A DNA stretch of 64,000 nt from an uncultured Dehalococcoidales bacterium (GCA_964437795.1 CAYTIC010000004.1:3475-67474), one strand, 5' to 3'. Shown: positions 44,537-62,670, counted from the first letter of the stretch. Notes: generated by a model from the letters alone, not told the origin. Made by a program: numbers and translations.

Positions 44537-44592
44537 TTTCAATATCCGTCGAGTCTGTCATTTTGCTTATGTGCAGCATAAAAGGTTGCGCC

Positions 44593-45474: not shown

Positions 45475-45493
45475 GCGGGACTGCTGCTTTACC

Positions 45494-46666: not shown

Positions 46667-46696
46667 CTCAATCTCCCGGTTTTTATTATTCTTCGT

Positions 46697-48058
46697 TTAC
46701 CAGTCCAAACCCTTCGATTTTCGAACCTTCCTGTAGTGGTCCATGGTCTGCTCGAAGGCCTCTGCCCTTGCCAGCACCTCCTGGGGATTGAAGACACGCT
46801 TGTCGATGATATCGCCCTCGACCCACAGGCTGGGTATATCCAGTGTATCCTGCTCGAAGTGCTGCACCGTCCTGAGGCTGCAGCTGGCAGCGCGGCAGGA
46901 GATGAGCGGGTGCATGAAAAAGCCATCGGCCTTAAAGCCCCGGGCTATCTTGAGGTAAGTTTCAACGACTGGATTGGAGACATTGTCCTTCTTGGCCTCG
47001 GGGAAGACATTGAACCAGAAATTGCGTGAGAAGCGCGCCAGCTTCTCGCAGGGATCGCTAATCTTGCTCAGGTCGAGCGGCCTGGTGTTGTGATAACCGA
47101 AGCTCTCGAAGACGAAATTCCATCCTTTCTCCGCCAGGTTGTCAAAAAACTTCAGGCTGTGCCAGGGAGGGAGCTCCGCGAAGATCAGGCGGTATCTTTC
47201 GGGGTAGTTGATGCCCGATTCCTTGACCTTGACGCGCTCCTGCACCTCGGCCAGCATGTCCTGGTACAGCTTGAGAGAGACGTTCATATCGCCGGCGAAA
47301 AAGAGGGCGGGCGGCATGCTGCTCCAGAAGTCCGTGCTGTGCATGGGCCCGGGGATGGCCTTGCGGGCCTCGCTGATCTGGTAGGTGGTCTCGTGTATCT
47401 TGGTGGCCAGGACGATCAACTCCTCCAGCCTGGCCCAGTCCATCTTCTTTTTCAGCAGCTTTTCCAGGAATGCGATAAAGTCCTTTATCTCTTTGGTCAG
47501 GAATTTGACCTGGTACTCTTCAAGGTCGGGCTCATTGCCTTCGAAAGTGGCCATCATGGGCATTTCGAGGCACCATTCAGGAGCATCGAAGTATCTTGCC
47601 AGCGCTTGAAACCACTTGAAACGGGCGTCGCAGATAATGCCCGATCCGAGCAGCAGCGCCGGTTTGGCCATGCCGCCCAGCGGGGCATCGGGGGGTATCT
47701 TGCCGCCGTTTTCCTTCATCATGCGGTAGGAATAGCCGATCGTGGCCCTGCCGTAGCCGCACATATGAGTGGGGAAGCCATCGGAATCCGAGGCATCCAG
47801 GAACGGCTCGGCTGCGCCGGAGGCCGCCAGCAAAGTGGCGTAGTTCTCAGGGTAAACGATATTCAGCCCCATGGCCTTGAGCGGGAGATCGCCCTCCCAG
47901 TAATTGAGCATGGACCATACGGTCGGCTTGCCCTCATTGCTGGCCTGGAGTGTATCAACGTAGTCCTGCTGCACGAGGTTGCGCAGCGGATAAACGCTCT
48001 TAAGGCGGTTAATGGCTCTTTTCTTCTCGGTCTTGGCGGGAGTTGCGGTTTCGCTCAT
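46697..48058 (-). CDS. HGD-D family subunit (BcrB/BadE/HgdA-like)
   Basis: Paralog of 39833-41191. Confidence 0.8.
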   Translation of the reverse strand: MSETATPAKTEKKRAINRLKSVYPLRNLVQQDYVDTLQASNEGKPTVWSMLNYWEGDLPLKAMGLNIVYPENYATLLAASGAAEPFLDASDSDGFPTHMCGYGRATIGYSYRMMKENGGKIPPDAPLGGMAKPALLLGSGIICDARFKWFQALARYFDAPEWCLEMPMMATFEGNEPDLEEYQVKFLTKEIKDFIAFLEKLLKKKMDWARLEELIVLATKIHETTYQISEARKAIPGPMHSTDFWSSMPPALFFAGDMNVSLKLYQDMLAEVQERVKVKESGINYPERYRLIFAELPPWHSLKFFDNLAEKGWNFVFESFGYHNTRPLDLSKISDPCEKLARFSRNFWFNVFPEAKKDNVSNPVVETYLKIARGFKADGFFMHPLISCRAASCSLRTVQHFEQDTLDIPSLWVEGDIIDKRVFNPQEVLARAEAFEQTMDHYRKVRKSKGLDW

Positions 48059-48185
48059 CTTTCACTCCTTATATGTTTTCAATGCGGAATATAAAAAGAT
48101 CGGCAGACTTAAATATTAGAATATTGCCGGTCTTAATGCAAAGACATCTGTGCACCGTTTCACTCATAGGTTAGCCGTTCCTTTC

Positions 48186-49703
48186 TCAGCTTATCTGACC
48201 GGTGTCCAGCATTTTGACCAATTCCTTTTTTAGTATCTTGCCCACAGGGCTGCGCGGCACCTGCTGCAGTATATAGACACGCCGGGGAATCTTGAAGCGC
48301 GCCAGCTTCTCGCTTAAATAATCGGTCATTTCCTTTTCGGTTAATGTGGCGCCGGGCCGCGGCACTACGATGGCTACGGGTACTTCCCCCAGCCGCACAT
48401 CCCTCTGTGGGACCAGTACTGCGTCGGCCACTGCAGGGTGCTTGTACATGATCTCCTCCACCTCGCGGGGGAAGACCTTCTCGCCTCCCACGTTGATAAG
48501 CTCCTTCTTGCGGTCGACCATGAAGAAGTAGCCGTCCTTATCGTAATATCCCATATCTCCCGTGTGCAGCCACCCTCCGCGCAGGGCCTCGGCCGTCTCC
48601 TTGGGCTTTTTATAGTAGCCTTTCATCACCAGCGGCCCCTGGATGACCAGCTCACCTACCTCCCCCGTTCCCAGCAGCTTACCCGACTCGTCCATTGCGC
48701 CCACCTTCACGCCGGGGTAGGCCAGCCCGACGCTGCCCTCCTTGTAGGTAAGGTCCGAGCGCTGCATTGTCGCCGAGGCGGAGCATTCGGTCAGGCCCCA
48801 GGCCTCGAGGATCTTGATGTTAAGCGCGCTGGAGGCGTCCTTCATGAGCTGGGCCGGCATGGCCGAAGCGCCCGAGATGCCGATGCGCAGCGACGAAAGG
48901 TTATACTTGCTGCGGTCCGGATGGTTTATCAACATGAAATACATGGCTACTACCATGGGTATGAAGGTGATCTTATGTTTCTCGATCTGCTCGAATATCT
49001 CGACGGGATTAAAGGGGTCAAGCAGTACGAAGGAGGAACCGGTCACCAGCGAGCAGAGAATCACGGTGATACCGAAGCCGTGGAAGGCCGGCACGACCAT
49101 CAGGGCGCGGTCATTGTCTCCCAGCTTGAGCAGTTTGACGATAATGTCGGCGTGGAAGAACAGGTTGGCGTGGGTCAGCATGGTGCCCTTGGGCTCGCCG
49201 GTAGTGCCCGAAGTATAGAGGATCTCGACCACATCGTCTTCCTTGCAGAGGGCTTTAAAAGGAGTGGACGGGGCCTCCGCTTCGAGCTTTGAGAACTCCA
49301 ACCCCTCGCGGTAGGCGCCGTTTACGATCAGGTGTTTGAAGAGGGGAGGCTTGTTTGCGATTTTGCTGTAGTGCTCGGCGAAGGCCGGATTTGCTACCAG
49401 CGCCACCGCATCGCTGTCACGCAGCAGATACTCCAGTTCGCGCTCCTTATAAAATATGTTGACCGGCACGGCCACTGCTCCCAGGTAGGCGCAGGCGAAA
49501 TAGGTCACGATGAACTCGGGGCAGTTGTTGAGCATGATGGCTACCTTGTCGTCGGGCTTGATGCCGAGACCGTGCAGGGAGTGTGCCAACCTCTGTGCCC
49601 TGGCCAGAAGCTGGCTGTATGTTACAGGCTGGTCCTTGAATATGAGCGCTGGTTTGTTTCCAATCTTGGAGGCTCTGGCCTCCAACATGCCGGGCAGATG
49701 CAT
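48186..49703 (-). CDS. AMP-dependent acyl-/aryl-CoA ligase
   Basis: YTSGTTGEPKG motif; AGGAGG RBS. Confidence 0.85.
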   Translation of the reverse strand: MHLPGMLEARASKIGNKPALIFKDQPVTYSQLLARAQRLAHSLHGLGIKPDDKVAIMLNNCPEFIVTYFACAYLGAVAVPVNIFYKERELEYLLRDSDAVALVANPAFAEHYSKIANKPPLFKHLIVNGAYREGLEFSKLEAEAPSTPFKALCKEDDVVEILYTSGTTGEPKGTMLTHANLFFHADIIVKLLKLGDNDRALMVVPAFHGFGITVILCSLVTGSSFVLLDPFNPVEIFEQIEKHKITFIPMVVAMYFMLINHPDRSKYNLSSLRIGISGASAMPAQLMKDASSALNIKILEAWGLTECSASATMQRSDLTYKEGSVGLAYPGVKVGAMDESGKLLGTGEVGELVIQGPLVMKGYYKKPKETAEALRGGWLHTGDMGYYDKDGYFFMVDRKKELINVGGEKVFPREVEEIMYKHPAVADAVLVPQRDVRLGEVPVAIVVPRPGATLTEKEMTDYLSEKLARFKIPRRVYILQQVPRSPVGKILKKELVKMLDTGQIS

Positions 49704-49888: not shown

Positions 49889-49916
49889 TTGACTATTGAT
49901 ACCCTTCTGTTAGAAT
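49889..49916 (+). promoter_or_regulatory. candidate promoter TTGACT-N16-TAGAAT for the downstream ligase/RdhA/phosphoesterase cluster
   Basis: -35 49889-49894, -10 49911-49916; a GACTGTCAGTC palindrome just downstream. Confidence 0.4.
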
Positions 49917-50033
49917 AAGCGACTGTCAGTCAGTTATCATCAAGATTTGTTTGGAGGGAGCCGCGGGCCAAGCAGCATTCTCACCCGATATCAAACGGGT
50001 AAATAACAGTGAATATCATAAGGAGGTGCAGGA

Positions 50034-51632
50034 ATGAACCTGGCCAACCTTGTAGTTGAAGGGATCAGGAAATTCGGGGAATACGAGTGCTGTTATTTCG
50101 AGGGGAAATGGTACACCAATGTGGAACTGGACGATATGTCCAGCCGCCTGGGCAATGCGTTGAAATCGATCGGTGTCGGCAGGGGAGACCGAGTGGTCAC
50201 GCAATTGCCGAACTGCCCGGAGATCGGGTGTACGTTCAATGCCGTATATAAGATAGGCGCCGTTGCCGTGCCTATGAATCCCATACTTCGCCCGGACCAA
50301 ATATCCCATATCTACAGGAACTGCGGCGCCGGGGTAACCATCACGACATCCGATTATCTACCCTGGATCAGGGAGGCGCAGAAAAATGCCCCGGGGCTCA
50401 AGCAGATCATTTTAGTTGACAGGGATGATGAGCCGGGCACACTCTCTTTTAAAAAGTTGCTGGAAAGCTCCAGCAGCGAGCTGAAGGTGGAGGACATGGA
50501 TGGCGAGGACCTGGCTGCGCTTATCTATACGTCCGGCACCACCGGCAATCCCAAGGGAGTTATGCACACCCACTACTCACTGTGGATCAACGCGGTGTGC
50601 TTCGCCGATTTTACCGCAATGTGCTCGCCCACAACCCTGCGTGATGTCCGCCGGGACCTCAACAAGCACACGTACAAGATCGAGGAGACCATGCAGGAAG
50701 TTACCGGACACGACCGCAACGTGCTGTTCCTGGCGGTCCTGCCGCTGTCCCACTCGTACGGGTTGTCCTTCATGAATTTCGGCAGCCTGGTCGGGGCCAG
50801 GTACGTAGTGATGAAGTGGTGGAACCCCGCGGGCGCACTCAAAATCATCGAAGATATGCGCGTAGGATATATTGCGCTGGTGCCGACCATGTACGTTCAC
50901 CTGCTTGACCAGCCCGACTTCGACAGGTATGATCTCTCATCGCTCCAGTACTGCAACTCGGGGGCCGCAGCGCTGGACACAGGCATCGCAATGAAGTGGA
51001 AGGAGAAGACGGGAGTTCATATCCATGAGGGTTGGGGCATGACGGAATCCGGCGCGACCACTTCGGGAAATCCCACCACGTGCCCACCCAAGATCGGTTC
51101 CATCGGCGTTAACATGCTCAAGTGCAACACGATGAAAGTATTCGACAACGAGGACCACGAGTTGCCGCCGGAAAGCATCGGCGAGCTGGTTATCAAGGGC
51201 CCTACGGTAATGAAGGGCTACTGGAATATGCCCGATGAAACCGCGGAGGCGCTCAAGAACGGCTGGCTGCATACCGGGGATATCGGGTACATGGATAAGG
51301 ACGGCTATTTCTATATTACCGACCGAAAAAAGGACATAATCATCCGCGGCGGGGAAAATGTATCGCCCAGAGAAGTTGAAGATGTTGTCTGTCAGCATCC
51401 CAGGGTGCTTGAAGCGGGTTGCGTGGGAATCAAGGACCGGGTATACGGGGAGGAGATAAAGGTGTTCGTCGTGCTCAGGGAGGGGGAACAGTGCAGCGAG
51501 GCAGAGATTATTGAGCATTGCAGGAAGCATTTACCCTCTTTTAAAACACCCGGCAAGGTCCAGTTCATAAGTTCGCTGCCCAAGAATATTCTGGGGAAGA
51601 TATTGAGGGCCGACCTGCGCAAGGCGGGATAG
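50034..51632 (+). CDS. AMP-dependent acyl-/aryl-CoA ligase
   Basis: YTSGTTGNPKG motif; AAGGAGGTG RBS. Confidence 0.85.
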   Translation: MNLANLVVEGIRKFGEYECCYFEGKWYTNVELDDMSSRLGNALKSIGVGRGDRVVTQLPNCPEIGCTFNAVYKIGAVAVPMNPILRPDQISHIYRNCGAGVTITTSDYLPWIREAQKNAPGLKQIILVDRDDEPGTLSFKKLLESSSSELKVEDMDGEDLAALIYTSGTTGNPKGVMHTHYSLWINAVCFADFTAMCSPTTLRDVRRDLNKHTYKIEETMQEVTGHDRNVLFLAVLPLSHSYGLSFMNFGSLVGARYVVMKWWNPAGALKIIEDMRVGYIALVPTMYVHLLDQPDFDRYDLSSLQYCNSGAAALDTGIAMKWKEKTGVHIHEGWGMTESGATTSGNPTTCPPKIGSIGVNMLKCNTMKVFDNEDHELPPESIGELVIKGPTVMKGYWNMPDETAEALKNGWLHTGDIGYMDKDGYFYITDRKKDIIIRGGENVSPREVEDVVCQHPRVLEAGCVGIKDRVYGEEIKVFVVLREGEQCSEAEIIEHCRKHLPSFKTPGKVQFISSLPKNILGKILRADLRKAG

Positions 51633-51676
51633 GCGCTCTTCCCGGATGGGGAGAAATATGTAGCGGGAGGCAGGAT

Positions 51677-52681
51677 ATGCGAATATGCAAAGGCTACAGG
51701 CGGCTATCTTTCATCACAGATACGAGGGGGATTAAAAGCGCCATAGGCGAGATGCGGGGGCTTGGACATCCTCAACAGCCGGTGTTGAACAAGAGCTACC
51801 TGCCCGCGGCGGACGACCCGGTAATCGATGAGCAATGGTTCATAGACACCATAACTCAGAAGGTAGAAAGCCATCCTATGAACAGTATGGAGTACCCTTT
51901 GGACGGAGAGAGGATATTCGATTCACCCCTGGTGGGTTTTGTGAGAGGTGACGACCCGCTTCTGGCTGATTACAGGCGGATCATAGGCCCGCACCATTTC
52001 ACACCGGCTGCCATTATGGCCTGGCAGGCCAAGAGAAACGGCGTGCCTGCCCCCGACGCTGCCGACCTCAGCGTTGTTTCGTTTATCCTGCCCATAACGG
52101 GCATAACCAGGGAGGAGAATGCAGCTATGAGTGAATGGCCCTCCGAGCGCTGGGCCCAAACCAGGCTGTTGGGCGAAATATTCAGCCAGGTCATGGTGAG
52201 GGAGATTGTATCCAACCTTATGCAAAGGGGGATACTGGCCATCGCCCCCGATGTGACGCCTCTTTTCAGAAAACAGCGCTACCCCGAAGTTGGGTGGGCT
52301 TCGCCCTGGTCACACCGCCATATGGCCTATGCGGCGGGATTGGGGACATTCGGCATGCATGATTTCCTCATAACGGAGAAGGGGGCGGCACACCGCTGCG
52401 GAAGTTTTATCGTGAACCTGAAGCTGCAGCCCAACAGGTCGAGGCCGGACAACATACACGCGGGCTGCCTCCAGCACAACGGCGCCAAGTGCCTTAAATG
52501 CGCCACCAAGTGCCCGGTCGGGGCTATCGGCGAGAGAGGGCATGACAAGGAAGCCTGTTATAACCGTGTGTCCAAAACCCTGGCATACTGCAATAAAAAT
52601 TACCACATTTTCATCTATGGCTGCGGGCTGTGCTCGGTAGGTGTGCCCTGCGCATCGGCCATACCGGCCAGGAAGCAGTAA
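51677..52681 (+). CDS. RdhA/QueG-superfamily cobalamin/[4Fe-4S] protein (reductive dehalogenase/epoxyqueuosine reductase-like), cytoplasmic
   Basis: SHRHMAYAAGLGTFGMH…RCGS core resembling QueG/RdhA; two Cys clusters (Cx7CxxCxxxCP; CGLCx5C); no TAT signal. Confidence 0.55.
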   Translation: MRICKGYRRLSFITDTRGIKSAIGEMRGLGHPQQPVLNKSYLPAADDPVIDEQWFIDTITQKVESHPMNSMEYPLDGERIFDSPLVGFVRGDDPLLADYRRIIGPHHFTPAAIMAWQAKRNGVPAPDAADLSVVSFILPITGITREENAAMSEWPSERWAQTRLLGEIFSQVMVREIVSNLMQRGILAIAPDVTPLFRKQRYPEVGWASPWSHRHMAYAAGLGTFGMHDFLITEKGAAHRCGSFIVNLKLQPNRSRPDNIHAGCLQHNGAKCLKCATKCPVGAIGERGHDKEACYNRVSKTLAYCNKNYHIFIYGCGLCSVGVPCASAIPARKQ

Positions 52682-52712
52682 ATATAATGGCAATCACCAC
52701 GTATATGCGGTA

Positions 52713-52769
52713 TTGACAGGCCGCTGATATATGTTAGAATGTGGTCTGTAACTGACCGTCGGTCATTTA
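52713..52769 (+). promoter_or_regulatory. promoter TTGACA-N16-TAGAAT plus palindromic operator TAACTGACCG-T-CGGTCATTTA upstream of tetR
   Basis: -35 52713-52718, -10 52735-52740; 21-bp imperfect palindrome 52749-52769 at the expected TSS. Confidence 0.45.
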
Positions 52770-52777
52770 TAAAAACC

Positions 52778-53371
52778 ATGTCGAAACAGGCTGATCCACG
52801 GCACAGGGAGGACATACTTGAGGCGGCGCGCCGGGTTTTCCGGGAGCAGGGCTACGAGAAGGCGCGCGTGGAGGATGTGGCCAGGCTGGCGGGCGTTGCC
52901 AAGGGCACCGTTTACCTTTATTTCAATTCCAAACTTTCCATATTGGAGGCGCTGGTCGATTCGTATTATGTGATGATGCTGCAGGCGATCGTACCCCACC
53001 TGTCTGATCCTGATAGCAGGCTTGCGCTTAAAAAGGCGGTGCATGCGGGCTTTGTACTGGCGGCCCGTGAGCAAGACCTGGTCGTACTGCTGGACCTGCG
53101 CCTGGGCTATGCAAAAAACAGGAAAGTGGCGACAATCGGGAATCCTCTGGCGCTGAGGGAGATCCGGCGCTTCCTGAAGAGGTGCCACGATAGGGGCGAG
53201 CTGCGCAACTATGAAACGGACATCGCCGCTGTCTTGATGGGAGGCCTGTTGCAGTGGATAACCAAGCTGTGCCTGGTCTGGCAGGGTGATGACCTCGCCA
53301 AATACGAAGATACCGCTGTAAAAATGCTGCAGTTTGCGCTTTTTAATAGCAGCCGAAAAGGTGGTAAGTAA
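52778..53371 (+). CDS. TetR/AcrR family transcriptional regulator
   Basis: N-terminal HTH ILEAARRVFREQGYEKARVEDVARLAGVAKGTVYLYF. Confidence 0.8.
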   Translation: MSKQADPRHREDILEAARRVFREQGYEKARVEDVARLAGVAKGTVYLYFNSKLSILEALVDSYYVMMLQAIVPHLSDPDSRLALKKAVHAGFVLAAREQDLVVLLDLRLGYAKNRKVATIGNPLALREIRRFLKRCHDRGELRNYETDIAAVLMGGLLQWITKLCLVWQGDDLAKYEDTAVKMLQFALFNSSRKGGK

Positions 53372-53395
53372 AAACCGGGATACGAGGAGGACTTC

Positions 53396-54988
53396 GTGAA
53401 AAACAAAGCGGGATTGATCGCGATACTGGCGTTGTTGCTGTGTGCGCTGTTGCCTGCCTGCACGCCGGGCCAGACGTTGTCGCAACGGAGTGATCAGCAA
53501 TACGTGGTAGTCATCGTCATAGACGCCTGCCGCCCGGATTATTTCGACATCGCTGATATACCCAATATTAAGAAGCTGGCAGATGGTGGGGTCACTTATA
53601 CTGATGCCTGGGTAGGGCAGAACCCCAACGTCACGCCTCCCAGCCATGCAACCATCACAACGGGCGCCTTCCCCAGGCGGCATGGAATTCTCAACTTCCT
53701 GTGGAGGAATCCCAGGACCGGACTGGCTTACTGGTACACATACTGGGACGATGTATATACGGGGGACTATAACAAAATGATTAAGGGCAACGATGTTGTC
53801 AGCATCGGGTCGCTGTACAAGCAGAAGTTCCAGGGAGCCAGGGTCGCCGCAGTGGGATCGGGCAAGTTTTATGCGGTGGCTTCCATGGCGGCCGATGACA
53901 GCGACTATATACTCTTCCTGAATGCCGCCGGGGTGGTCAATCCTGAGGCGGAGTCACCCGACAGCTTCGAGGTGAGCGGGGTAAAGGGCCACCTGGCCCC
54001 TCAGGAGATCATGAAGGACCCTGCATTGAACCGGCCCAAGGGGAGTGGTTGGGATGCTGACAACTGGGCGACGGATGTGGCGCTCAAGCTATTTGAAAAA
54101 GAGAGGCCGCAAGTGCTGTATCTAAGTCTCTCTGAAACCGATGAGGCCGGCCACTGGAGCCTCTCTATCAATGACGCCAACGTTATGGGCAGTTGCGTCA
54201 GCAATGCTGACAGGCAGATCGGCCGCTTGATGGAGGCGTACAGCAAGGCCGGGATCTTCGACAGGACGCTCTGGGTGATCGTTGCCGACCACGGCATGAC
54301 ACCGACACTACATACAATACCGCAGAAAGCCGTCGATGCGGAGATTACCAAAACCGGTACCCGGGTGCAGGTGCAGAATCCGGAGACATTGCTCTTCGAT
54401 CCTTCAAAGACTGCCCAGGCGGTTGAGAACGTGATCAAAGCCGGCATACCCGGCATTAAAGGCGCTTATATCCATGTGCAGAAGCCCGACGGGAGTTGGA
54501 CCACCGAGCCGGCGCCGTCCTCTGCCACATTGATTACGGGGGACCTGGACAGGTGTTTCCTCTACCTCAAATCTACCGATACCGGACCGAACAGCGCCGA
54601 CTTTACACTCATAGAAAAAGAGAACTGGAGGCAGGACTGGTCGATACTGGGGGCCAAACCGATGCTCAGCAGCCACGAGACCATTACATGGAACGACCAG
54701 CATATCCCACTCATCATATCGGGGCCGGGAGTGAAGAAGGGGGTGAAACTGAACACTCCTGCACGGCTGGCCGACATCGCTCCCACCGTGGTTTCCCTGC
54801 TGGGCATAACACCGGAGAAGATGGACGGGGTGGTATTGGCTGACTGCATGGAGCGGGCAACTGTACAACAGGTTGAGGCACAGAAAGAAGTGACCCGTTT
54901 CCTGGAACCGTTGAGGGCTGCCCTCAAGGCTTCCTCCCAGGCCGACCTGGCCGACAACGAGAAACAGTTCGGTCAAAAAGAACGGTAG
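53396..54988 (+). CDS. secreted alkaline-phosphatase-superfamily type I phosphodiesterase/nucleotide pyrophosphatase family lipoprotein
   Basis: Lipobox LLPAC; VVIVIDACRPDY…TPPSHATITTG metal/nucleophile motifs; GTG start with GAGGAGG RBS. Confidence 0.8.
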   Translation: MKNKAGLIAILALLLCALLPACTPGQTLSQRSDQQYVVVIVIDACRPDYFDIADIPNIKKLADGGVTYTDAWVGQNPNVTPPSHATITTGAFPRRHGILNFLWRNPRTGLAYWYTYWDDVYTGDYNKMIKGNDVVSIGSLYKQKFQGARVAAVGSGKFYAVASMAADDSDYILFLNAAGVVNPEAESPDSFEVSGVKGHLAPQEIMKDPALNRPKGSGWDADNWATDVALKLFEKERPQVLYLSLSETDEAGHWSLSINDANVMGSCVSNADRQIGRLMEAYSKAGIFDRTLWVIVADHGMTPTLHTIPQKAVDAEITKTGTRVQVQNPETLLFDPSKTAQAVENVIKAGIPGIKGAYIHVQKPDGSWTTEPAPSSATLITGDLDRCFLYLKSTDTGPNSADFTLIEKENWRQDWSILGAKPMLSSHETITWNDQHIPLIISGPGVKKGVKLNTPARLADIAPTVVSLLGITPEKMDGVVLADCMERATVQQVEAQKEVTRFLEPLRAALKASSQADLADNEKQFGQKER

Positions 54989-55027
54989 ATTTCTATATAG
55001 AGGAAGATTAGTTCAGGAGGATGATGA

Positions 55028-55579
55028 ATGTCGAATAAACTCATGCTGCATTTAGTATTAATCACCGTTGCTCTGTTTACAGCCTCTGTGGCCGCATGCA
55101 CGCAGACACCTGCCGGCGCGGGCAAAGAGCTTTCTTTCAGTCCGCTAACGTATACAAACGACCAGTATGGTTTCTCGCTGCAATATCCCGACAACTTTAA
55201 GGAGGATAAATCCAAGGAGAAGGACACGATGCTTTTCAATGCCGTCGGGCCGCTGGTAGGTGGAAGGATACCGGTGTTGACCGTCAATATTTTCGACCGT
55301 AACAGGGCGCAGGAGCAGGCCATCGAGCTGATCAAGGCCGGCAGCGGCTCGGATATTAAGATCACACCGCTCAGGGAGATAACGCTGCAGGATGGCAAGA
55401 CCAGTGGCAAGATAAGCACGACAGCCTGGTACCATAACGATGCTAAATTCGATATGCGCGGATTGTCGCTGGGTGTGGTCAAAGGTGAATACCAGATCAC
55501 GGTCACGCTGACATCCATCTTTGCCATGTATAACGAGGATAAGTATATGGAGATTCTCAATACGTTTACGTTGAAATGA
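55028..55579 (+). CDS. hypothetical lipoprotein
   Basis: Signal peptide with VAAC lipobox; AGGAGG RBS. Confidence 0.55.
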   Translation: MSNKLMLHLVLITVALFTASVAACTQTPAGAGKELSFSPLTYTNDQYGFSLQYPDNFKEDKSKEKDTMLFNAVGPLVGGRIPVLTVNIFDRNRAQEQAIELIKAGSGSDIKITPLREITLQDGKTSGKISTTAWYHNDAKFDMRGLSLGVVKGEYQITVTLTSIFAMYNEDKYMEILNTFTLK

Positions 55580-55631
55580 AGCGGCATTGTCCATGTGAAC
55601 AGGTAACAAATTGTTGAAGGGGAATGAGATC

Positions 55632-56465
55632 ATGAGTAAGTTGGAAAGTTACCGCAGGGCCGGCAGGCGAATATACGACAGGCTACACCTGGCTTCTTAC
55701 CCTGTGGGCATCAGGTATATTAAAAGTGAAAGTGAGATACCACAGGGAAGTATGAGGCCTTCGGCGCTGGGACAAAAAAGTAGTCTGTGCCAGGCATTCA
55801 CCTATGCCAGGCGTTTCGGCTTCACCATGGCTATGACAGCCGACGATAATTTCTGCACACCCGCCACGGCCATGCACCGTTGGGTAGATATACCCTTCGA
55901 AGTGTTGGTGGAGAGCCAGGTTATCCAGGGATGGCACAAAGATGCAGAGGCTGAGAAAAAGAGGATAGAGCACGGGCAAAAAATGATTGGCAAAGCCAAT
56001 CTTCCGAAGCTGTTGAAATATAAAGGATTCATCTGTTTCCCGTTGCATAATGCTCCAGCCAGGCCGGACAGCGTGCTTATTTATGGTAATGGTGAAAATG
56101 TAATGCACATAATACATGCGCTTACATATGGAGGCGAGAATTTTCCCACCTCGTCCTTTGAAGGATTTGCCGAGCCGTGCCTGAAAGGTGGCCTGATCCC
56201 TTTTATTACCGGGGTCCCGCAGGTAATAATTCCCGGCATGGGTGACCGCTCTTTCTCGGGGACTTACGATTACGAGATAGCCATCGGCATACCGGCAGAA
56301 CTCATCTTCGATGCCGAGCGCGACCTGTTTAAGACGGGTGGGCCGATGAACATGGGCCAGCCGGCCAAAACACTGCTTCCACAAAGCCTGACTGAAAACA
56401 TCACACCCGGTTTCAAATTCATGAGAGAAAAGTTCGATGCAAAGAAGGGTAAAAAAGCGGTCTGA
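55632..56465 (+). CDS. hypothetical protein, DUF169-like (tentative)
   Basis: In-frame ATG with AAGGGGA RBS; family assignment from memory only. Confidence 0.45.
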   Translation: MSKLESYRRAGRRIYDRLHLASYPVGIRYIKSESEIPQGSMRPSALGQKSSLCQAFTYARRFGFTMAMTADDNFCTPATAMHRWVDIPFEVLVESQVIQGWHKDAEAEKKRIEHGQKMIGKANLPKLLKYKGFICFPLHNAPARPDSVLIYGNGENVMHIIHALTYGGENFPTSSFEGFAEPCLKGGLIPFITGVPQVIIPGMGDRSFSGTYDYEIAIGIPAELIFDAERDLFKTGGPMNMGQPAKTLLPQSLTENITPGFKFMREKFDAKKGKKAV

Positions 56466-56502
56466 ACCTCGATACTGCCTGTTTTGATTTAAGGGGTAAA
56501 AC

Positions 56503-57639
56503 ATGCGTGGATTTATAAATGCAAATACGGCCGGCTTCCTGGCCCTTTTGCTTATCGCCGCAATAGCGGTTTCAGGATGCGTTACCCCGGTCCCAGTTGC
56601 GTCTACCGAGCCGGTTCCCGTACAGGCAAAGGAACAGGAAGCAGCTGTCATTGAGCCCACACCCCCGGGTATGGTCAACACAGTGCTGGGACCCATATCT
56701 CCCGACCAACTCGGCCAGGTGCTGGTGCATGAGCACTTCGTTTTCAGCCGTGCGGGATGGTACGCGGATGCAACGATTGCCCCGTATGACCGCGGCGCTG
56801 CCATGCAGGCCGGGCTTAATGCCTGCCTGCTGGCCAGGGCAGCGGGGATCAATGCTATTATCGATGCAACGCCCAACGATTGCGGCAGGGACCCCGAGCT
56901 TTACAGGGGGCTGAGCAGGAAAACCCTGATGAACATAATCTGCTCAACCGGGCTTTATTACGAGAAGGGAGGCGCTCCGGGCTACTGGGAGGCCAAGGCA
57001 CAGCTCGGCCAGGATATATCCAGAATGATAGCCGAGCTTTTTATCAAAGAGATCAGGGATGGTATCGGCGCCACCGGTATCAGGGCGGGTGTCATCAAGG
57101 TCTCTTCGAGCGAGATTATCACACCTTATGAAGAGGCTGTCTTCAAGGCGGCTGTGATAGCCCAAAAGGCTACCGGTGTGCCGATTATCACACATACGCA
57201 GGGGCCAGGACCGGGCATAGCGCAGGCGGACCTTTTCATCAGGGAAGGCGCCGACCTTAAAAAAATCATGATCGGGCACGTTTCCAATAACGCTGATATC
57301 GGATATCATCAGGCCATAATCGAGAAGGGATTGAATGTGGGATTTGACCAGCTCGGGTTGAACTATATACCGGACGAGCAAAATGTGCGTAATATCGCTG
57401 ATCTGTGTAAACGCGGATATGCCGATCGGATCATGCTCTCCCAGGATACGGTCAATTACTGGCTGGGACGTTCACTTGTAGAAGATGCGCCGCTGAAGGT
57501 CACCGAAGCGATCTCTAAATGGAAAATCGACCACGTTGCACGGGACATTTTACCTGCGCTGAAAAAGGCCGGGGTCACCGATGAACAGATCACGCAGATG
57601 ATGGTTGACAATCCACGTAACATGTTCGCGGGGCGGTAG
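56503..57639 (+). CDS. phosphotriesterase (PTE/aryldialkylphosphatase, amidohydrolase superfamily) family lipoprotein
   Basis: Signal peptide with AVSGC lipobox; HEH metal motif (LVHEHFVF), IKV, ITHT, GH, SQD typical of PF02126. Confidence 0.8.
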   Translation: MRGFINANTAGFLALLLIAAIAVSGCVTPVPVASTEPVPVQAKEQEAAVIEPTPPGMVNTVLGPISPDQLGQVLVHEHFVFSRAGWYADATIAPYDRGAAMQAGLNACLLARAAGINAIIDATPNDCGRDPELYRGLSRKTLMNIICSTGLYYEKGGAPGYWEAKAQLGQDISRMIAELFIKEIRDGIGATGIRAGVIKVSSSEIITPYEEAVFKAAVIAQKATGVPIITHTQGPGPGIAQADLFIREGADLKKIMIGHVSNNADIGYHQAIIEKGLNVGFDQLGLNYIPDEQNVRNIADLCKRGYADRIMLSQDTVNYWLGRSLVEDAPLKVTEAISKWKIDHVARDILPALKKAGVTDEQITQMMVDNPRNMFAGR

Positions 57640-57684
57640 TACGTGCGATACTGAATTAGATATACTTCTATAGGAGTAGTAGTC

Positions 57685-59076
57685 ATGAATAAGATTGAAG
57701 AAAGCATCAGGGAATTTGCTCTAAAGGCCGGCGCCGGGCTGGTCGGCATGGCCGGGCCAGAGAGGCTGGATGGTCCGCCTTCGCTAGATCCCGGTTATAC
57801 CTTGAGAGGGGCCAAATCGGTTGTATCTTTGGTTATACCCATGAATGTGCCCGCTATCTACGATTTTCTAAGTAAAAAATCATCCGGGCCGCACAATGTC
57901 GACCAGATGCGCATGAACCAGCGGGTACACCGCATAGCCGGAGAGGTCGCAGATTACATAGAGAGTCTGGGTCATAAGGCAAAGGCGGTGCCTGCAAATA
58001 ATACTTACCGCCGCGCACTGGACCCTTTCTGCACGCGTCCCAGCTTCTCCCACCGCTTCGGCGCCGTGGTGGCCGGATTGGGCACATTCGGGCTTTCGGG
58101 CAATGTGGTCACAAAAGACTTCGGCGCAGCGGTCTACCTGGGCTCGGTTGTGACTACTGCCGTGCTTGAATCAGACTCCTCATTGCCCGCGCGACATGCG
58201 ATGGACACCCGCTGCCGCACGTGCAAGCTGTGCGACAAATCCTGCACCCTGCGCATGTTCGAGGACAACGAAGAAGAGTACCTTCTGTTGAACGGCGAAT
58301 TGCACGCGCGCGGCAAGCGCAATAACGTCGATTTCTGCAACCTTTCATGCTTTGGGCTGCATGCCATATCACAGGATAAAAAATGGTCCAACTGGGGGCG
58401 GCATGTGGTCAAGGAATGGCTGGACAACCAGCCGGACCCGCAGAAAAGCGAGTATGTCAGGGGTATGCTCATGAGGCAGGGCGCAATGAGCGGCGACAGC
58501 ACACCGCGCTTCGAGGTCATCCGCCGCGTTGGCGCGAAGCTCTGGCCCAGGGAGGCCATCGAAGATTCCTTGCCTGATTACAAAGACCTGCCGGAGGCGG
58601 AGAAGGACATTTGCGATTTGCTGGTAAAAGCAGAGGAGAGGTTGGGGATATATGGACTTAAGGATCCCTATGTGCTGACCTGCGGACAGTGTGCGCTGGT
58701 CTGCGGGCCGGACTTTGAGGAGACTAAGAAACGTTTTGATCTGCTGACGCAGAGCGGCTACGTTGTCCCCGGACCCGAAGGAAAGATGGTGCGCGTAAAA
58801 ACGCTGGAGGAGTATTTTAAGGTTAAGGAACAGTATCCGGTCAAAATCGATCGCTCGCAGATAATGAAGGATGCCAATGCTTCTGGCTCGGTTTGGCTGC
58901 GCGACTACTTCGGATTTGAGCCGGCGGGTGAATTGAAGAACAGCATCTATCAGGCCAGGAATAAAAAGGCCTGTTCAAAGGCCGGCCTGGCTGGCAAGGA
59001 AGCCAGGCCCTTGTATATCGGCAACCCGGGCTACCTGTTGTCGGTAATCGCACCCAAGAAGAAAAAGAAGAGGTGA
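57685..59076 (+). CDS. RdhA/QueG-superfamily cobalamin/[4Fe-4S] protein, cytoplasmic
   Basis: IREFALKAGAGLVGMAG N-terminus; SHRFGAVVAGLGTFG core; CRTCKLCDKSC and CGQCALVCGP ferredoxin motifs; no TAT signal. Confidence 0.65.
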   Translation: MNKIEESIREFALKAGAGLVGMAGPERLDGPPSLDPGYTLRGAKSVVSLVIPMNVPAIYDFLSKKSSGPHNVDQMRMNQRVHRIAGEVADYIESLGHKAKAVPANNTYRRALDPFCTRPSFSHRFGAVVAGLGTFGLSGNVVTKDFGAAVYLGSVVTTAVLESDSSLPARHAMDTRCRTCKLCDKSCTLRMFEDNEEEYLLLNGELHARGKRNNVDFCNLSCFGLHAISQDKKWSNWGRHVVKEWLDNQPDPQKSEYVRGMLMRQGAMSGDSTPRFEVIRRVGAKLWPREAIEDSLPDYKDLPEAEKDICDLLVKAEERLGIYGLKDPYVLTCGQCALVCGPDFEETKKRFDLLTQSGYVVPGPEGKMVRVKTLEEYFKVKEQYPVKIDRSQIMKDANASGSVWLRDYFGFEPAGELKNSIYQARNKKACSKAGLAGKEARPLYIGNPGYLLSVIAPKKKKKR

Positions 59077-59170
59077 GCGGTGTCCCTCGCCTGAAGAGTG
59101 ATAAGATATATGTCAGAAATATCCTGAAATAGCTTTTTAATTATTTTAAGCAGGAGGATAGGGAGAGAAA

Positions 59171-60880
59171 ATGAGGTTATTGATGCTGTTAAAAAAGTTT
59201 ACACATTCCCTTATTGCGCTATTACTCGTGATCTCGTTTACAATTTGTATCCCGGCTAATAGTGCCATAGCTGATGAAGCGGCGCCACCGTCAGCGAAAT
59301 ACCTGGTGTTGATAAGCATCGACTCATGCCGGCCGGACTACCTCGCCCTGACGCCGACGCCTAACATCGATAGTTTAAAAGCGTCCGGAACTTACTACTC
59401 CAACTCCTGGGTCGGGCAGGTGAGCAACGACACACCGCCCGGGCAGACCAGCATGTCGACGGGATCATTTGGTAAAAACACTCGCATTATAAGCTTCAAC
59501 TGGAGGGACAGAGTCGCACTGCCTGCGGATTGGGAGTTCAAGCTCGCCATCACTAACAAGGTGCTGGAGCTGATTAAGGCAACAGGATGGGATGCGCTCG
59601 GCCTATGGTATCAGCAGAACATGGTGCGCAAGACCATCGAGGGTAACTTTATAACCAATTTCGATAATGTCGTATCCGGATTTTTCAACAGTTATATCAG
59701 GAAATCCGGCGTCCCCAGCATCGGTTCTCTCTATAAAAAGGCCAATCCCGGCGCCAAGGTGGCTGCAATAAGCTGTGATAAGTGGTATGCCTGTGCCGGC
59801 CTGGCCGCGGATAGCGCTGATTACACGGTGTTCGCTGAGGCCAAGGGAGTAGCACCGATCGGTTACAACAATGTTTCACATCTGAAGCCGGTGGGAGTGA
59901 CAGGGATGCTGCCGCCGGATTACATCATGAACGATCCGTCTCTGATCAGGGAAGTGAAGGACGAACGCGATACCGACACCTGGGCAACCGACGTGGCCCT
60001 GCAGGTGATTGAGAAGACCGGCCCTCAGGTACTGCTTATCAACCTGCCGGCAACCGACGATGCCGGGCATGCCACCGGTGGGATCACCGATCCGCAAAAG
60101 ATGTCCGCTGTAATTGCCAACGTCGATGTGCAGATCGGGCGCATCATAGATGCCTATAAAAAAGCGGGCAAATATGATGACACAGTGTGGGTAATCACCT
60201 CGGACCATGCCATGACTCCTCTCAGCATTAAAATAGAGCAACCGGTAATAGATAAACTGCTGGTAGAGGCACGCAACTTTTCCAACGTGGGGACCCACGT
60301 ATACCTGATGGACCAATCGCAGACACAGCAGGTGGCAGAGAAGCTTACAGAGGCTGGCATACCCGGCATTTTCGGCGCCTATTACAAGGTCAAGTCATCA
60401 AGCGGCAGCTACAGCTATGTGCCTGCCAGGGCTACCGCGCCAAAAGTGGAGGGGAACCTGGATACATGTTACAGGTATTTGCTTGATACCTATGCGGGCG
60501 AGAGCAGCCCGGATATTGAGTTGCTCCCAGTGGAGAACTGCCACATTAACTGGACCATGTTCGATTGCAAACCCTTTGTTGGCAACCACGATTCCATCTC
60601 CTGGCTGCAGCAGCATAATATCCTGATCATATCGGGTCCCGGGACCAAAAAGGGCTTCGTCTCTGAAAGCCCTGCACGGCTGGTCGATATTGCTCCGACG
60701 GCACTGACGCTACTGGGGATCAGGCCGGAGCGCATGGACGGCATTGTGCTGTCCGATGCACTGGAGTCGCCTACCACCACACAGCTCCATACTCAGATGA
60801 CGGTGAACGGCCAGCTCATTCCCCTGGAGCAGGCACTGAAAGAGCGGTCTGAGGCCGATATCAAGGCGCAAGTTAAGTAA
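59171..60880 (+). CDS. secreted alkaline-phosphatase-superfamily type I phosphodiesterase family protein (paralog of 53396)
   Basis: Signal peptide; LVLISIDSCRPDY…TPPGQTSMSTG. Confidence 0.8.
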   Translation: MRLLMLLKKFTHSLIALLLVISFTICIPANSAIADEAAPPSAKYLVLISIDSCRPDYLALTPTPNIDSLKASGTYYSNSWVGQVSNDTPPGQTSMSTGSFGKNTRIISFNWRDRVALPADWEFKLAITNKVLELIKATGWDALGLWYQQNMVRKTIEGNFITNFDNVVSGFFNSYIRKSGVPSIGSLYKKANPGAKVAAISCDKWYACAGLAADSADYTVFAEAKGVAPIGYNNVSHLKPVGVTGMLPPDYIMNDPSLIREVKDERDTDTWATDVALQVIEKTGPQVLLINLPATDDAGHATGGITDPQKMSAVIANVDVQIGRIIDAYKKAGKYDDTVWVITSDHAMTPLSIKIEQPVIDKLLVEARNFSNVGTHVYLMDQSQTQQVAEKLTEAGIPGIFGAYYKVKSSSGSYSYVPARATAPKVEGNLDTCYRYLLDTYAGESSPDIELLPVENCHINWTMFDCKPFVGNHDSISWLQQHNILIISGPGTKKGFVSESPARLVDIAPTALTLLGIRPERMDGIVLSDALESPTTTQLHTQMTVNGQLIPLEQALKERSEADIKAQVK

Positions 60881-60907
60881 CAGCGATCGATGATGAGGGG
60901 ATAATAA

Positions 60908-61498
60908 GTGAAAAAGCCGCTGAAAATCATACTTGCGGTGCTGGTGGTGCTGGTAGCAGGTGGGGCTATCGGCTACTGGTCCGCCATGTGGTCCTATGAT
61001 CCTCTGTACCGGGCAGGCACAATTAAAAATGGCCCGTGGATGACAAACCTCACTATCGGCAGCCGGGAAGCCGGCCTGCACATCAAGGCTGTCATAGCGA
61101 TGACTTCCCTTCTGGCACTGACAAAATCGGAGGCTGTCTACTATCAGGCGGAGGTAGATGGGAGCGGCAAACCTCTCAGCACGAAATGTGTTTATCGGAT
61201 TGATGGCAAAGGGCTTGATGCAGGATGGTGGAGTATCACAGTTTATGGACAGGACAATTTCCTCATACCAAATGAGAAGAATATCTACTCATATAACATG
61301 GACACCGTAAAAACTAGTCCAGACGGCAGCTATAGCATCTACCTGTCGTCAAGCCCACAGGAACAGAACTGGCTGCCCGTGGGCACCGGAGACCAGAAAA
61401 TAACCCTTCTTCTGCGCCTGTATAATCCGGGTCCCACCGTTTATGCCGACCCGGGAGGTATAGAGCTTCCCCGTATCGTTAGGGATGGCTGCAAATGA
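60908..61498 (+). CDS. DUF1214 family protein (secreted/membrane-anchored)
   Basis: GTG start with GAGGGGA RBS; N-terminal TM; family call from memory. Confidence 0.55.
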   Translation: MKKPLKIILAVLVVLVAGGAIGYWSAMWSYDPLYRAGTIKNGPWMTNLTIGSREAGLHIKAVIAMTSLLALTKSEAVYYQAEVDGSGKPLSTKCVYRIDGKGLDAGWWSITVYGQDNFLIPNEKNIYSYNMDTVKTSPDGSYSIYLSSSPQEQNWLPVGTGDQKITLLLRLYNPGPTVYADPGGIELPRIVRDGCK

Positions 61499-62022
61499 AG
61501 AAGTGGATTTTGTGGACAGCACTGGCGACAATTCTTTTCGCGCTGGCCGTGCATCTTGCCGTGGTGGCCTACATTCCTTACAAAGTCATGGACACGGTCA
61601 TGAATGTCCGCTTCAAGGATTTGCCGCGCAACACCATGAATTTCGGCCCGCCGACGACTGTTGAATCCAGGGATGTGGTCAGACCTTCACCGGATATCCT
61701 CTACTCAATTTGCATATACGATGTTTCAAAGAAACCCCTCCTCATAACATGTCCGTTGCCTGAAGGGTATTGGTCAGCCTCGTTTTATGCCGATAATACG
61801 GACAATTTCTTTGTTATTAACGACAGACAGGCAAGGTCAAACCCTGTGCAGCTTTTACTGGTGGGTAAAAATAACACAGCTACTGAACTGGCCAATGCAA
61901 TAACCGTCAAGGCACAGAGCGATAGGGGTCTGGTACTGATACGCATGTTAGTGCCGGACGAGAATGCGCTGCCCTCGCTGATAGATGTCCAGCAGAAGGC
62001 CGGTTGTAAACAATTGGAATAG
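61495..62022 (+). CDS. DUF1254 family protein
   Basis: ATGA overlap with the previous gene; N-terminal TM; DUF1254/DUF1214 are a known co-occurring pair. Confidence 0.55.
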   Translation: MKKWILWTALATILFALAVHLAVVAYIPYKVMDTVMNVRFKDLPRNTMNFGPPTTVESRDVVRPSPDILYSICIYDVSKKPLLITCPLPEGYWSASFYADNTDNFFVINDRQARSNPVQLLLVGKNNTATELANAITVKAQSDRGLVLIRMLVPDENALPSLIDVQQKAGCKQLE

Positions 62023-62071
62023 GCTATTTCCAATTGTGATGGATGAGTTTAGTATTAACAAGGAGATAGAT

Positions 62072-62599
62072 ATGGCTAAGAAAGATAAAACCGAAGCGGA
62101 CTATGACAAAGAGCTGGCGGCAGTCTGCGGCCTGTTCTGTCCTTCTTGTACCCTCTATATCGGTACTCAGGAAGATCCGCAGAGGCTTAAATTCCTGGCT
62201 GAAAGATTCAAGCTCCCGCCGGAAGAGGTCCGATGCGGCGGATGCCGTTCGGAGTTGCGCTCCTTTTACTGTCGGGATATCTGCAAGATGGCCAGGTGCG
62301 CTGCTGAAAAGGGGATCGAGTTTTGTGGAAGCTGCGAGTCATATCCCTGCCAGGAGTTAAAAGATTTCCAGTGCGCCATGCCGCACAGGATCGAGCTTTG
62401 GAGTTCGCTGGACCGCATCCGTGAGGTCGGTCCCGAGATATGGTATTCCGAGATGTTGGAGCACTACGCGTGCCCCTCCTGCGGGACGATCAACTCCGCT
62501 TACGATTTCCAGTGCCGCAAGTGTGGTGGCGAGCCGGGCAGCAGGTATGTGGCGGAGCATAAGGATGAGATAGTCAGGCAGCTTGGCAAAATGAAATAA
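62072..62599 (+). CDS. Cys-rich DUF3795-like protein
   Basis: AAGGAG RBS before ATG 62072; multiple CxxC pairs (CPSC, CGGC, CGSC, CPSC, CRKC). Confidence 0.55.
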   Translation: MAKKDKTEADYDKELAAVCGLFCPSCTLYIGTQEDPQRLKFLAERFKLPPEEVRCGGCRSELRSFYCRDICKMARCAAEKGIEFCGSCESYPCQELKDFQCAMPHRIELWSSLDRIREVGPEIWYSEMLEHYACPSCGTINSAYDFQCRKCGGEPGSRYVAEHKDEIVRQLGKMK

Positions 62600-62630
62600 T
62601 TCATTTTTACGAAGGTATTGGCTACGAAAT

Positions 62631-62670
62631 GAGGGGCGGACTTTTAAGTCCGCCCCTCATTATTTTATTT
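62631..62670. terminator. bidirectional intrinsic terminator between convergent genes
   Basis: gaggggcggactt-tt-aagtccgcccctc hairpin followed by attattttattt on the + strand. Confidence 0.7.

Follow-up and report, generated by a model that had tools for sequence, protein, structure and literature searches.

Cytosolic catabolic members of the RdhA family, namely NpRdhA, BhbA and the 'simplified cytosolic RdhA-like' proteins of Chloroflexota and Desulfobacterota metagenome-assembled genomes (MAGs) (PMC12219181), are the closest described enzymes to two reductases, Rdh334 and Rdh463, that we analyse here. Both are encoded in a 12-gene cluster at positions 50034-62599, + strand, of a 64,000-nucleotide stretch of DNA from an uncultured Dehalococcoidales bacterium (GCA_964437795.1, CAYTIC010000004.1:3475-67474), which we call the window. 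Like the cytosolic RdhAs, the window reductases are cytoplasmic, have neither a twin-arginine translocation (TAT) signal nor an RdhB partner, and have a predicted B12-type fold with two Fe-S motifs. Their context is likewise catabolic, with regulators and beta-oxidation-like genes, and the simplified proteins adjoin beta-oxidation genes in MAG surveys (PMC12219181). Unlike the cytosolic RdhAs, the window reductases reach only 23 bits on TIGR02486 (cut-off 160), have no PF13486 match and carry no fused NAD(P)H reductase domain, and their DUF169 and esterase partners have not been described for those enzymes. The epoxyqueuosine reductase QueG (TIGR00276; PDB 5d6s, 5d08) shares the fold, the Fe-S architecture and the cytoplasmic location. 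It differs in that the window reductases score 25-28 bits against 200 on its model and stand in a catabolic rather than a tRNA-modification context; Rdh334 is without the C-terminal domain, and the D-Y-H motif of QueG was not found. Respiratory RdhAs, such as PceA and the Dehalococcoides enzymes acting on tris(2-chloroethyl) phosphate (TCEP) as well as V6, have a TAT signal, an RdhB anchor and a respiratory context that the window reductases lack. The Dehalococcoides (mccartyi) RdhAs act directly on chlorinated organophosphate esters (chloroethoxy phosphates), cleaving both C-Cl and C-O bonds (PMC12838431), and are the closest chemical precedent for a link between a corrinoid enzyme and a phosphate ester.

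On the hydrolase side, the phosphotriesterase-like lactonases (PLLs) Dr0930, GKL/GkaP and GsP give the best sequence match to the phosphotriesterase (PTE)-family protein of the cluster and share its binuclear-metal ligand motifs. These lactonases have no signal peptide, whereas the window protein is an exported lipoprotein within an esterase-reductase cluster. The closest organophosphate pathway is the flame-retardant pathway of Sphingobium sp. TCM1 (Sb-PTE, Sb-PDE, Sb-PhoK; PMC5460133, PMC12444516, PMC11656708), which has the triesterase, diesterase and monoesterase logic and an NPP-family enzyme in common with the cluster. A related Novosphingobium diesterase belongs to the PHP family (PMC11656708), and Sb-PhoK to the NPP family. 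The TCM1 pathway is aerobic and without corrinoid reductases, and our comparison with it is by family names only, the NPP superfamily alone being common to both. Its triesterase is a beta-propeller protein. SdsA1-type alkylsulfatases and HLD-I (DhlA-like) haloalkane dehalogenases are recurrent partners of both reductase families in related loci and are absent from the window. All of the compared systems lack DUF169, exported cassettes of PLL or alkylsulfatase type and the two reductase subfamilies, and the conserved modular context of these new class III corrinoid reductase subfamilies is previously undescribed.

The cluster is built from a constant core and a variable shell. The core comprises reductases of two new subfamilies, DUF169, a TetR repressor and often an acyl-CoA ligase. 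The shell is made up of exchangeable hydrolases, often exported lipoproteins, that are directed at phosphate, sulfate, carboxyl or lactone esters or at carbon-halogen bonds. We tentatively favour a reading of the cluster as a mosaic, TetR-controlled island for catabolism or detoxification, in which swappable exported esterases act together with cytoplasmic corrinoid-type reductases. Judged by MAG labels, the island is widespread among uncultured anaerobes, and the pattern spans MAGs labelled Chloroflexota (including Dehalococcoidia), Desulfobacterota (including Smithella and Syntrophaceae), Actinomycetota and Spirochaetota.

The comparison drew on 68 loci from genomes for Rdh463 and 80 from metagenomes for Rdh334; we clustered their flanking proteins de novo and annotated representatives of the recurrent clusters. 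Across 139 non-redundant loci, genes within 3 kb of a reductase were then compared with genes at least 5 kb away. Esterases or dehalogenases account for 12.1% of the near genes and 1.3% of the distant ones (odds ratio (OR) 10.3, p = 1.7e-13), DUF169 for 4.9% and 0.4% (OR 11.8, p = 3.8e-06), TetR for 6.5% and 0.7% (OR 10.4, p = 1.3e-07), and acyl-CoA dehydrogenase, the control, for 0.8% and 1.1% (OR 0.7, p = 0.76); these p-values are optimistic because the loci are phylogenetically related. Such a hydrolase lies within 3 kb of Rdh463-family genes at 40 of 78 non-redundant loci, with an alkaline-phosphatase (AP)-superfamily esterase at 27, a haloalkane dehalogenase at 13 and an alkylsulfatase at 10. 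DUF169 is the most frequent single-family neighbour of the Rdh463 family over the same distance (31/78), and an AP-superfamily esterase follows Rdh463 homologues in many lineages. The linkage of hydrolases with reductases that the first-pass annotation of the window had proposed is thus conserved rather than fortuitous, given the roughly ten-fold esterase enrichment and the recurrence of gene order in relatives.

The recurrent neighbours also include three TetR groups, acyl-CoA ligases, MFS transporters, SCP2, SDR, acyl-CoA dehydrogenase, DUF362, a third family of RdhA/QueG-like proteins (about 287 aa) and a ferredoxin-domain protein of 367 aa. Recurrent AP-superfamily esterases are of four kinds: two NPP-like forms, one cytoplasmic (671 aa) and one TAT-exported (610 aa), the type found in the window (roughly 530-570 aa), and formylglycine-type sulfatases. 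Membrane-anchored metallo-beta-lactamase (MBL)-fold hydrolases and SdsA1-type alkylsulfatases recur as well. A recurrent alpha/beta hydrolase with a QDWGG nucleophile motif clears the haloalkane dehalogenase cut-off (NF002043, 358 versus 265 bits). Its genes recur beside homologues of both Rdh334 and Rdh463, which favours a halogen theme. In five Chloroflexota loci (L085, L086, L092, L097 and L098) an operon carries, in some cases after haloalkane dehalogenase, SDR and ligase genes, SCP2, Rdh334, an MFS transporter and the 671-aa cytoplasmic NPP-like esterase; this arrangement suggests that an anionic ester is imported and then cleaved inside the cell.

In close relatives the cluster order recurs on independent contigs at 80-90% protein identity, and a constant frame with swapped cassettes is seen in the window and in loci L161, L082, L012, L077 and L083. 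The order in the window, from the ligase to DUF3795, is that of Table 1. Loci L161-L163, whose PTE is 82% identical, run ligase, Rdh334, TetR, PDE1, Lipo183, DUF169, PTE, alkylsulfatase, PDE2 and DUF3795, and have no Rdh463. L082 runs Rdh334, TetR, PDE1, Lipo183, DUF169, alkylsulfatase, Rdh463, MBL and PDE2, and L012 (Chloroflexota) runs TetR, PDE1, Lipo183, DUF169, alkylsulfatase, Rdh463 and PDE2. Shorter versions are ligase, Rdh334, DUF169, PDE2 and DUF3795 in L077, with a cytoplasmic PTE 5 kb off on the opposite strand, and ligase, Rdh334, alkylsulfatase and DUF3795 in L083. The pair of ligase and Rdh334 homologue is adjacent in L077, L083, L084, L088, L089 and L161. Between DUF169 and the Rdh463 gene most relatives have a lipoprotein alkylsulfatase where the window has the PTE, and in one lineage (L161-L163) the two stand side by side. 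Since the SdsA1-type alkylsulfatases of the relatives are lipoproteins too, the PTE lies in or beside a slot usually held by an exported sulfate esterase.

Two further observations concern the edges and variants of the frame. An M20-CARDB gene pair follows DUF3795 in L001, L077 and L161, so M20 may belong to the conserved frame; the window itself has paralogous M20 peptidase-like genes at 4626-6149 and 62665-64000 (both on the - strand) and a CARDB-domain protein at 10815-12164. Locus L080 (4548-11038) is a sulfate-ester version of the cluster theme: it encodes a sulfatase, a protein resembling radical-SAM/SPASM maturases, a TauE-like exporter and a homologue of Rdh334, after which come DJ-1/PfpI, MBL and alpha/beta-hydrolase genes.

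All 12 open reading frames (ORFs) of the cluster, and every family label given to them in the first-pass annotation, were recovered in Pfam and NCBIfam searches (Table 1). Intergenic gaps within the cluster range from -4 to 94 bp. Independent gene calls were taken from an identical 15.6-kb metagenome contig (Logan SRR13723397), and by these the TetR gene probably starts at 52778 rather than 52739 and the DUF3795 gene at 62072 rather than 61985. Inspection of N-termini found no signal sequence in the ligase, Rdh334, Rdh463, TetR or DUF169, and lipoboxes or a signal peptide in PDE1, PTE and PDE2. The proposed division between cytoplasmic reductases and exported esterases is therefore upheld.

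Table 1. Features of the cluster, of its candidate control sites and of the divergent upstream unit, in window coordinates.
Feature	Position	Strand	Description and evidence
Acyl-CoA (AMP-forming) ligase	50034..51632	+	532 aa, cytoplasmic; AMP-binding, E 1.8e-82; NF004837 452.9 bits (cut-off 476)
Rdh334	51677..52681	+	334 aa, cytoplasmic RdhA/QueG superfamily member
TetR-family regulator	52778..53371 (ORF opens 52739)	+	TetR_N match
PDE1	53396..54988	+	Exported lipoprotein, AP superfamily, NPP type; PF01663 Phosphodiest E 4.8e-34; lipobox LLPAC
Lipo183	55028..55579	+	183-aa lipoprotein, no family assigned; lipobox VAAC
DUF169 protein	55611..56465	+	Cytoplasmic; DUF169 E 2e-36
PTE	56503..57639	+	PTE-family lipoprotein, phosphotriesterase-like lactonase type; PF02126 E 1.9e-57; lipobox VSGC
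Rdh463	57685..59076	+	463 aa, cytoplasmic RdhA/QueG superfamily member
PDE2	59171..60880	+	Exported NPP-type esterase, AP superfamily; PF01663 E 5.5e-27; signal peptide
DUF1214 protein	60908..61498	+	N-terminal membrane anchor, variable cassette; Pfam; also in L018
DUF1254 protein	61495..62022	+	N-terminal membrane anchor; start overlaps DUF1214 stop by 4 bp
DUF3795 protein	62072..62599	+	Cysteine-rich, conserved last gene of frame; Pfam, gene calls, synteny
Promoter-like site	49889..49916	+	5' of ligase; TTGACT-16-TAGAAT with TG; 10/12 matches
Candidate TetR operator	49921..49937	.	Contains TAACTGAC (49929-49936, minus strand) and palindrome GACTG-T-CAGTC
Internal promoter-like site	52713..52740	+	5' of TetR; TTGACA-16-TAGAAT with TG; 11/12 matches
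Candidate TetR operator	52749..52769	.	Palindrome TAACTGACCG-T-CGGTCATTTA, about +10 to +30 of the internal promoter
Strong terminator-like hairpin	62628..62661	+	Stem of 15 bp with 9 G-C pairs, and a T-rich tail; lies where the DUF3795 and M20 peptidase genes converge
Divergent unit	43757..49703	-	Acyl-CoA ligase, two HGD-D (453, 390 aa), two BcrAD ATPase (293, 261 aa)

Rdh334 and Rdh463 are two new subfamilies of the RdhA/QueG superfamily (class III, corrinoid plus two [4Fe-4S] clusters). The two families are mutually homologous (hhalign probability 96.9%), and the profiles of both match solely RdhA and QueG chains in the PDB. They are large, with at least 425 clusters at 90% identity for Rdh463 (mean column identity 62% in a 23-sequence alignment) and at least 2250 for Rdh334 (mean column identity 71%). 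Many members are named 'epoxyqueuosine reductase' by public annotation pipelines. As in RdhA, the predicted architecture places a nitroreductase-like, corrinoid-binding fold ahead of a ferredoxin domain that has two [4Fe-4S] motifs, and the invariant cysteine motifs of both families are compatible with two [4Fe-4S] clusters each. In Rdh463 the invariant cysteines form C-x2-C-x2-C-x3-C, the pair C218/C222 and C-x2-C-x3-C, and an insertion of ~140 residues separates the two Fe-S motifs. Rdh334 has nine invariant cysteines, is predicted to hold two [4Fe-4S] clusters and probably contains a corrinoid, given its fold; we infer corrinoid binding by both reductases on the same grounds. Only nine residues follow the last invariant cysteine of Rdh334. 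There is no C-terminal domain, and because the chain stops at this point the protein is without the HEAT-like tRNA-binding domain.

Neither reductase has a Pfam match above threshold, which includes the dehalogenase family PF13486 that the first-pass annotation had named for checking, and NCBIfam matches are limited to TIGR00276 (QueG) and TIGR02486 (RDH), both weak. In both proteins the TIGR00276 alignment is confined to a core that surrounds AGLG and the first Fe-S motif. In the printed profile alignments the invariant residue R240 of Rdh334 falls opposite Arg305 of the PceA catalytic site; a counterpart of PceA Tyr246 was not placed in either reductase. Active-site residue roles in PceA and QueG are taken from published work, in which the StQueG motif is D100-Y101-H102 plus D130 (PMC4646009); no such D-Y-H motif is visible in the family alignments of Rdh334 or Rdh463. 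Rdh463 has its own invariant residues Y108-R109-R110, D113 and S122-H123-R124, and the alignment shows S212-H213-R214-H215 in Rdh334. Neither protein has a TAT signal or a hydrophobic signal sequence, and no adjacent gene encodes a small membrane protein. The N-terminus of Rdh334 (51677-51760) does contain a twin-arginine-like 'GYRRLSF', with Y7 and R8 invariant across the family and no hydrophobic region after it; this may be the remnant of a TAT signal from an exported ancestor, in a part of the structure model that is of low confidence.

These features separate the two families from both named branches of the superfamily. We rejected identity with bona fide QueG, a possibility that the first-pass annotation had itself raised, on the TIGR00276 scores far under the cut-off and on domain architecture. 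Canonical RdhA was rejected for want of a PF13486 match, a TAT signal and RdhB. A role for the reductases as maturases of neighbouring AP-superfamily enzymes, by analogy with anaerobic sulfatase-maturating enzymes, was set aside: the nucleophile of the NPP-type partners is an unmodified Thr, and the L080 sulfatase locus has its own radical-SAM/SPASM gene.

Both exported esterases are clear members of PF01663 (118.9 bits for PDE1 and 95.7 for PDE2 against a cut-off of 23), as the first-pass annotation had it. PDE1 has the metal-binding motif D-A-C-R-P-D-Y and the nucleophile motif V-T-P-P-S-H, and PDE2 has D-S-C-R-P-D-Y and D-T-P-P-G-Q, the nucleophile being Thr in each. NCBIfam gives neither an equivalog-level match to PafA, PhoY or PehA. 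The PafA alkaline-phosphatase model, one of several weak AP-superfamily matches, scores 56.9 and 22.2 bits for the window esterases against a cut-off of 650. The PafA enzyme is distinct from Sb-PhoK. Lipo183 accompanies PDE1 in every compared locus and may present or bind its substrate. The DUF169 protein has three invariant cysteines (C60, C82 and C190), and a sequence search against the PDB returned no meaningful match for it. The literature yielded no functional information on DUF169, DUF1214 or DUF1254.

The arrangement of candidate control sites fits two predicted TetR-controlled transcription units, one of ligase and Rdh334 and one from TetR through DUF3795, and this split agrees with the modular boundaries in the synteny comparison. 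The two promoter-like sites in Table 1 are the two best sigma-70-like sites within 49.5-64 kb; the one upstream of the ligase is no more than suggestive. The 8-mer TAACTGAC was first spotted by eye and its occurrences counted afterwards. It has only two copies in the window, each about 10-20 nt past a best -10 box, and the copy at the TetR site forms part of the palindrome TAACTGACCG-T-CGGTCATTTA. An inverted-repeat search of the 49.7-50.05 kb intergenic region returned none. The sole strong + strand terminator-like hairpin follows DUF3795.

Upstream of the cluster, the divergent unit encodes, by sequence, the set of subunits that characterises an enzyme like class I benzoyl-CoA reductase. The unit keeps its synteny with the cluster in L004, L024, L077, L088, L089, L097 and L098, and its subunit sizes are near-identical in L004, L024 and L077. 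A 341-aa protein encoded at 33024-34049 (- strand) has no Pfam match and may belong to this unit, since in L024 the BcrAD genes are followed by a homologue (484 bits). Looking up two proteins from the upstream part of the window by identical sequence returned no match, probably because the start codons chosen here depart from those on record. Elsewhere in the window, G+C content falls to 0.47 at 42001-44000, against about 0.55 in the remainder, around a PadR regulator gene and the intergenic region 43491-43756. A dense signalling cluster at 24400-32071 encodes five FHA-domain proteins, a PP2C phosphatase, a Ser/Thr kinase and a regulator with FHA and Trans_reg_C domains, and an unusual multidomain protein at 22659-24326 combines trypsin-like peptidase, purple-acid-phosphatase N-terminal, fn3 and redoxin/AhpC domains. 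An N6/N4 DNA methylase gene adjoining that of a 208-aa protein without a Pfam match (16594-18538) may be a restriction-modification remnant.

In the reading that we tentatively favour, exported esterases would first remove ester head-groups from an organic ester outside the cell. The freed organic moiety would then be taken up and would lift TetR repression at the two similar promoter-operator sites. Rdh334 and Rdh463, using Co(I) corrinoid fed by their Fe-S clusters, would take off a leaving group reductively, with halide the likeliest. The acid so formed would be activated to its CoA thioester by the ligase and passed on to the neighbouring benzoyl-CoA-reductase-like enzyme and to the products of the beta-oxidation-like genes. 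The localisation split, the swapping of head-group cassettes and the recurrence of haloalkane dehalogenase, SCP2, SDR and ligase genes together suggest catabolism or detoxification of organic compounds that are esterified and probably halogenated.

Several points weigh against this reading, in addition to the optimism of the enrichment p-values. The reductases score far below the cut-offs of both superfamily models, at 25.3 (Rdh334) and 28.3 bits (Rdh463) against 200 on TIGR00276 and at 23.5 and 22.9 bits against 160.35 on TIGR02486, and their chemistry could be neither dehalogenation nor epoxide reduction. Rdh463 has a variable Tyr or Val at the position equivalent to Arg305, as in QueG. The 64-kb window contains no genes for corrinoid synthesis, salvage or transport, no cluster-internal transporter and no haloalkane dehalogenase. 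Promoter-like and terminator-like sites are overall not commoner than in shuffled sequence. The functions proposed for the reductase families, for DUF169 and for the PTE clade are read from sequence and synteny.

The PTE-family lipoprotein bears on the pathway originally proposed for the cluster, in which PTE would act on a (chlorinated) organophosphate triester, PDE1 and PDE2 would carry the diester to the monoester, and the reductases would dehalogenate the released chloro-alcohols or aryl groups. Membership of PF02126 is genuine: the protein scores 195.4 bits (cut-off 22.4) and has every metal-ligand motif (HxH, K, H, H and D), with HEH, GVIKV, ITHT, IGHV and SQD aligning with the ligand positions of Dr0930. 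The best PDB matches, however, are the lactonases Dr0930, GKL and GsP (269-275 bits, E about 1e-80), with 43.6% identity to a Dr0930 variant, and parathion hydrolase scores about 151 bits. The protein reaches 139.5 bits against a cut-off of 500 on the organophosphate hydrolase (OPH) model NF041153, and we rejected its identity as a true OPH on the NCBIfam and PDB scores. In GkaP lactonase activity is the main one and triesterase activity just promiscuous (PMC4338136). With the PTE closest to lactonases and under the OPH cut-off, native triesterase activity is not to be assumed, a result that goes part of the way towards what the first-pass annotation had itself named as a refutation; the family assignment and metal site of the proposed triesterase stand, and its activity is in doubt.

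Dehalococcoidia and Desulfobacterota MAGs commonly encode exported PTE versions of about 355-383 aa, a 59%-identical homologue stands in an unrelated gene context (L164), and no PTE lies within 3 kb of Rdh463-family genes at any of the 78 loci. The position of PTE in the cluster is kept across 80-100% identity on independent contigs, and the gene, a variable cassette, occurs only in a narrow sublineage. Since PTE is not a conserved partner and an alkylsulfatase fills or adjoins its slot, the conserved system is not organophosphate-specific, contrary to the dedicated organophosphate system first proposed, and the evidence falls short of a triester-to-diester-to-monoester route with dehalogenation. 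The shell of the window itself is phosphate-oriented, with a PLL-type PTE lipoprotein and two NPP-type esterases. An organophosphate ester is consequently a reasonable substrate class here, though not the sole one, the triesterase step resting on a lactonase-like enzyme. In favour of the proposed pathway are the joint occurrence of these exported enzymes in one co-directional unit, the transformation of TCEP and V6 by Dehalococcoides RdhAs (PMC12838431) and the part of NPP-family PhoK in the TCM1 pathway (PMC12444516). Against it, the families are spread over peat, fen, bog and lake metagenomes, by record and sample names, which argues for natural over xenobiotic substrates. On balance we consider this pathway unlikely.

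A simpler role in nutrient scavenging, with the exported esterases freeing phosphate or sulfate from dissolved organic esters and with the reductases, DUF169 and TetR functionally separate, is less likely still. It would account for the extracytoplasmic location of all window esterases and for the internal promoter-like site before TetR, and sulfatases of sediment anaerobes have been interpreted in this way (PMC6129605). Reductase and esterase genes are nevertheless adjacent across phyla, including cases in which a cytoplasmic 671-aa NPP-like esterase lies between MFS transporter and reductase, the regulator is of the TetR family and not Pho-type, and the cluster has no phosphate or sulfate transporter genes.

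Quite speculatively, and with slightly less probability again, Rdh334 and Rdh463 could form a new functional class of corrinoid/Fe-S reductases, with DUF169 as obligate partner, that act on alkyl chains bearing halide, sulfate or phosphate leaving groups. They would catalyse a reductive (beta-)elimination or a hydrogenolysis dependent on Co(I), and the sulfate or phosphate ester could itself depart, by analogy with Dehalococcoides, which cleaves both C-Cl and C-O bonds in chloroethoxy phosphates. In nature the substrates could be polychlorinated alkyl sulfates, such as the chlorosulfolipids of freshwater chrysophytes (PMC13413282), or haloalkyl phosphates, and the exchange of alkylsulfatase, PTE, NPP-type and haloalkane dehalogenase cassettes would adapt a single reductive core to various head-groups. 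Least probable of all is a system for lactone or lipid-like natural esters, in which the PLL would be a true lactonase, the NPP-type enzymes would act on lipid phosphodiesters (lysophospholipase D or sphingomyelinase-type) and the reductases would reduce, for example, an epoxide on an acyl chain, as QueG does: the PLL affinity of PTE, the recurrent SCP2 lipid-carrier, SDR, acyl-CoA ligase and acyl-CoA dehydrogenase neighbours and the QueG-like lack of an Arg305 equivalent in Rdh463 (PMC4646009) are consistent with it, but it leaves the haloalkane dehalogenase and alkylsulfatase partners unexplained, the D-Y-H plus Asp motif of QueG was identified in neither family, and its lipid substrates are themselves conjectural.

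Two large families currently misannotated as 'epoxyqueuosine reductase', 'ferredoxin' or 'hypothetical' are thus separate branches within the superfamily of B12-dependent dehalogenases and QueG. They occur in a reproducible gene context that brings together DUF169, TetR, phosphate and sulfate esterases and haloalkane dehalogenases, and the exchange of cassettes provides a natural experiment from which substrates may be deduced. If the reductases are dehalogenases or related Co(I) reductases, DUF169 would gain its first functional assignment. Non-respiring Dehalococcoidia and syntrophic Desulfobacterota of peat, lake and sediment would then turn over organohalides and organic esters far more broadly than counts of canonical rdhA genes suggest.

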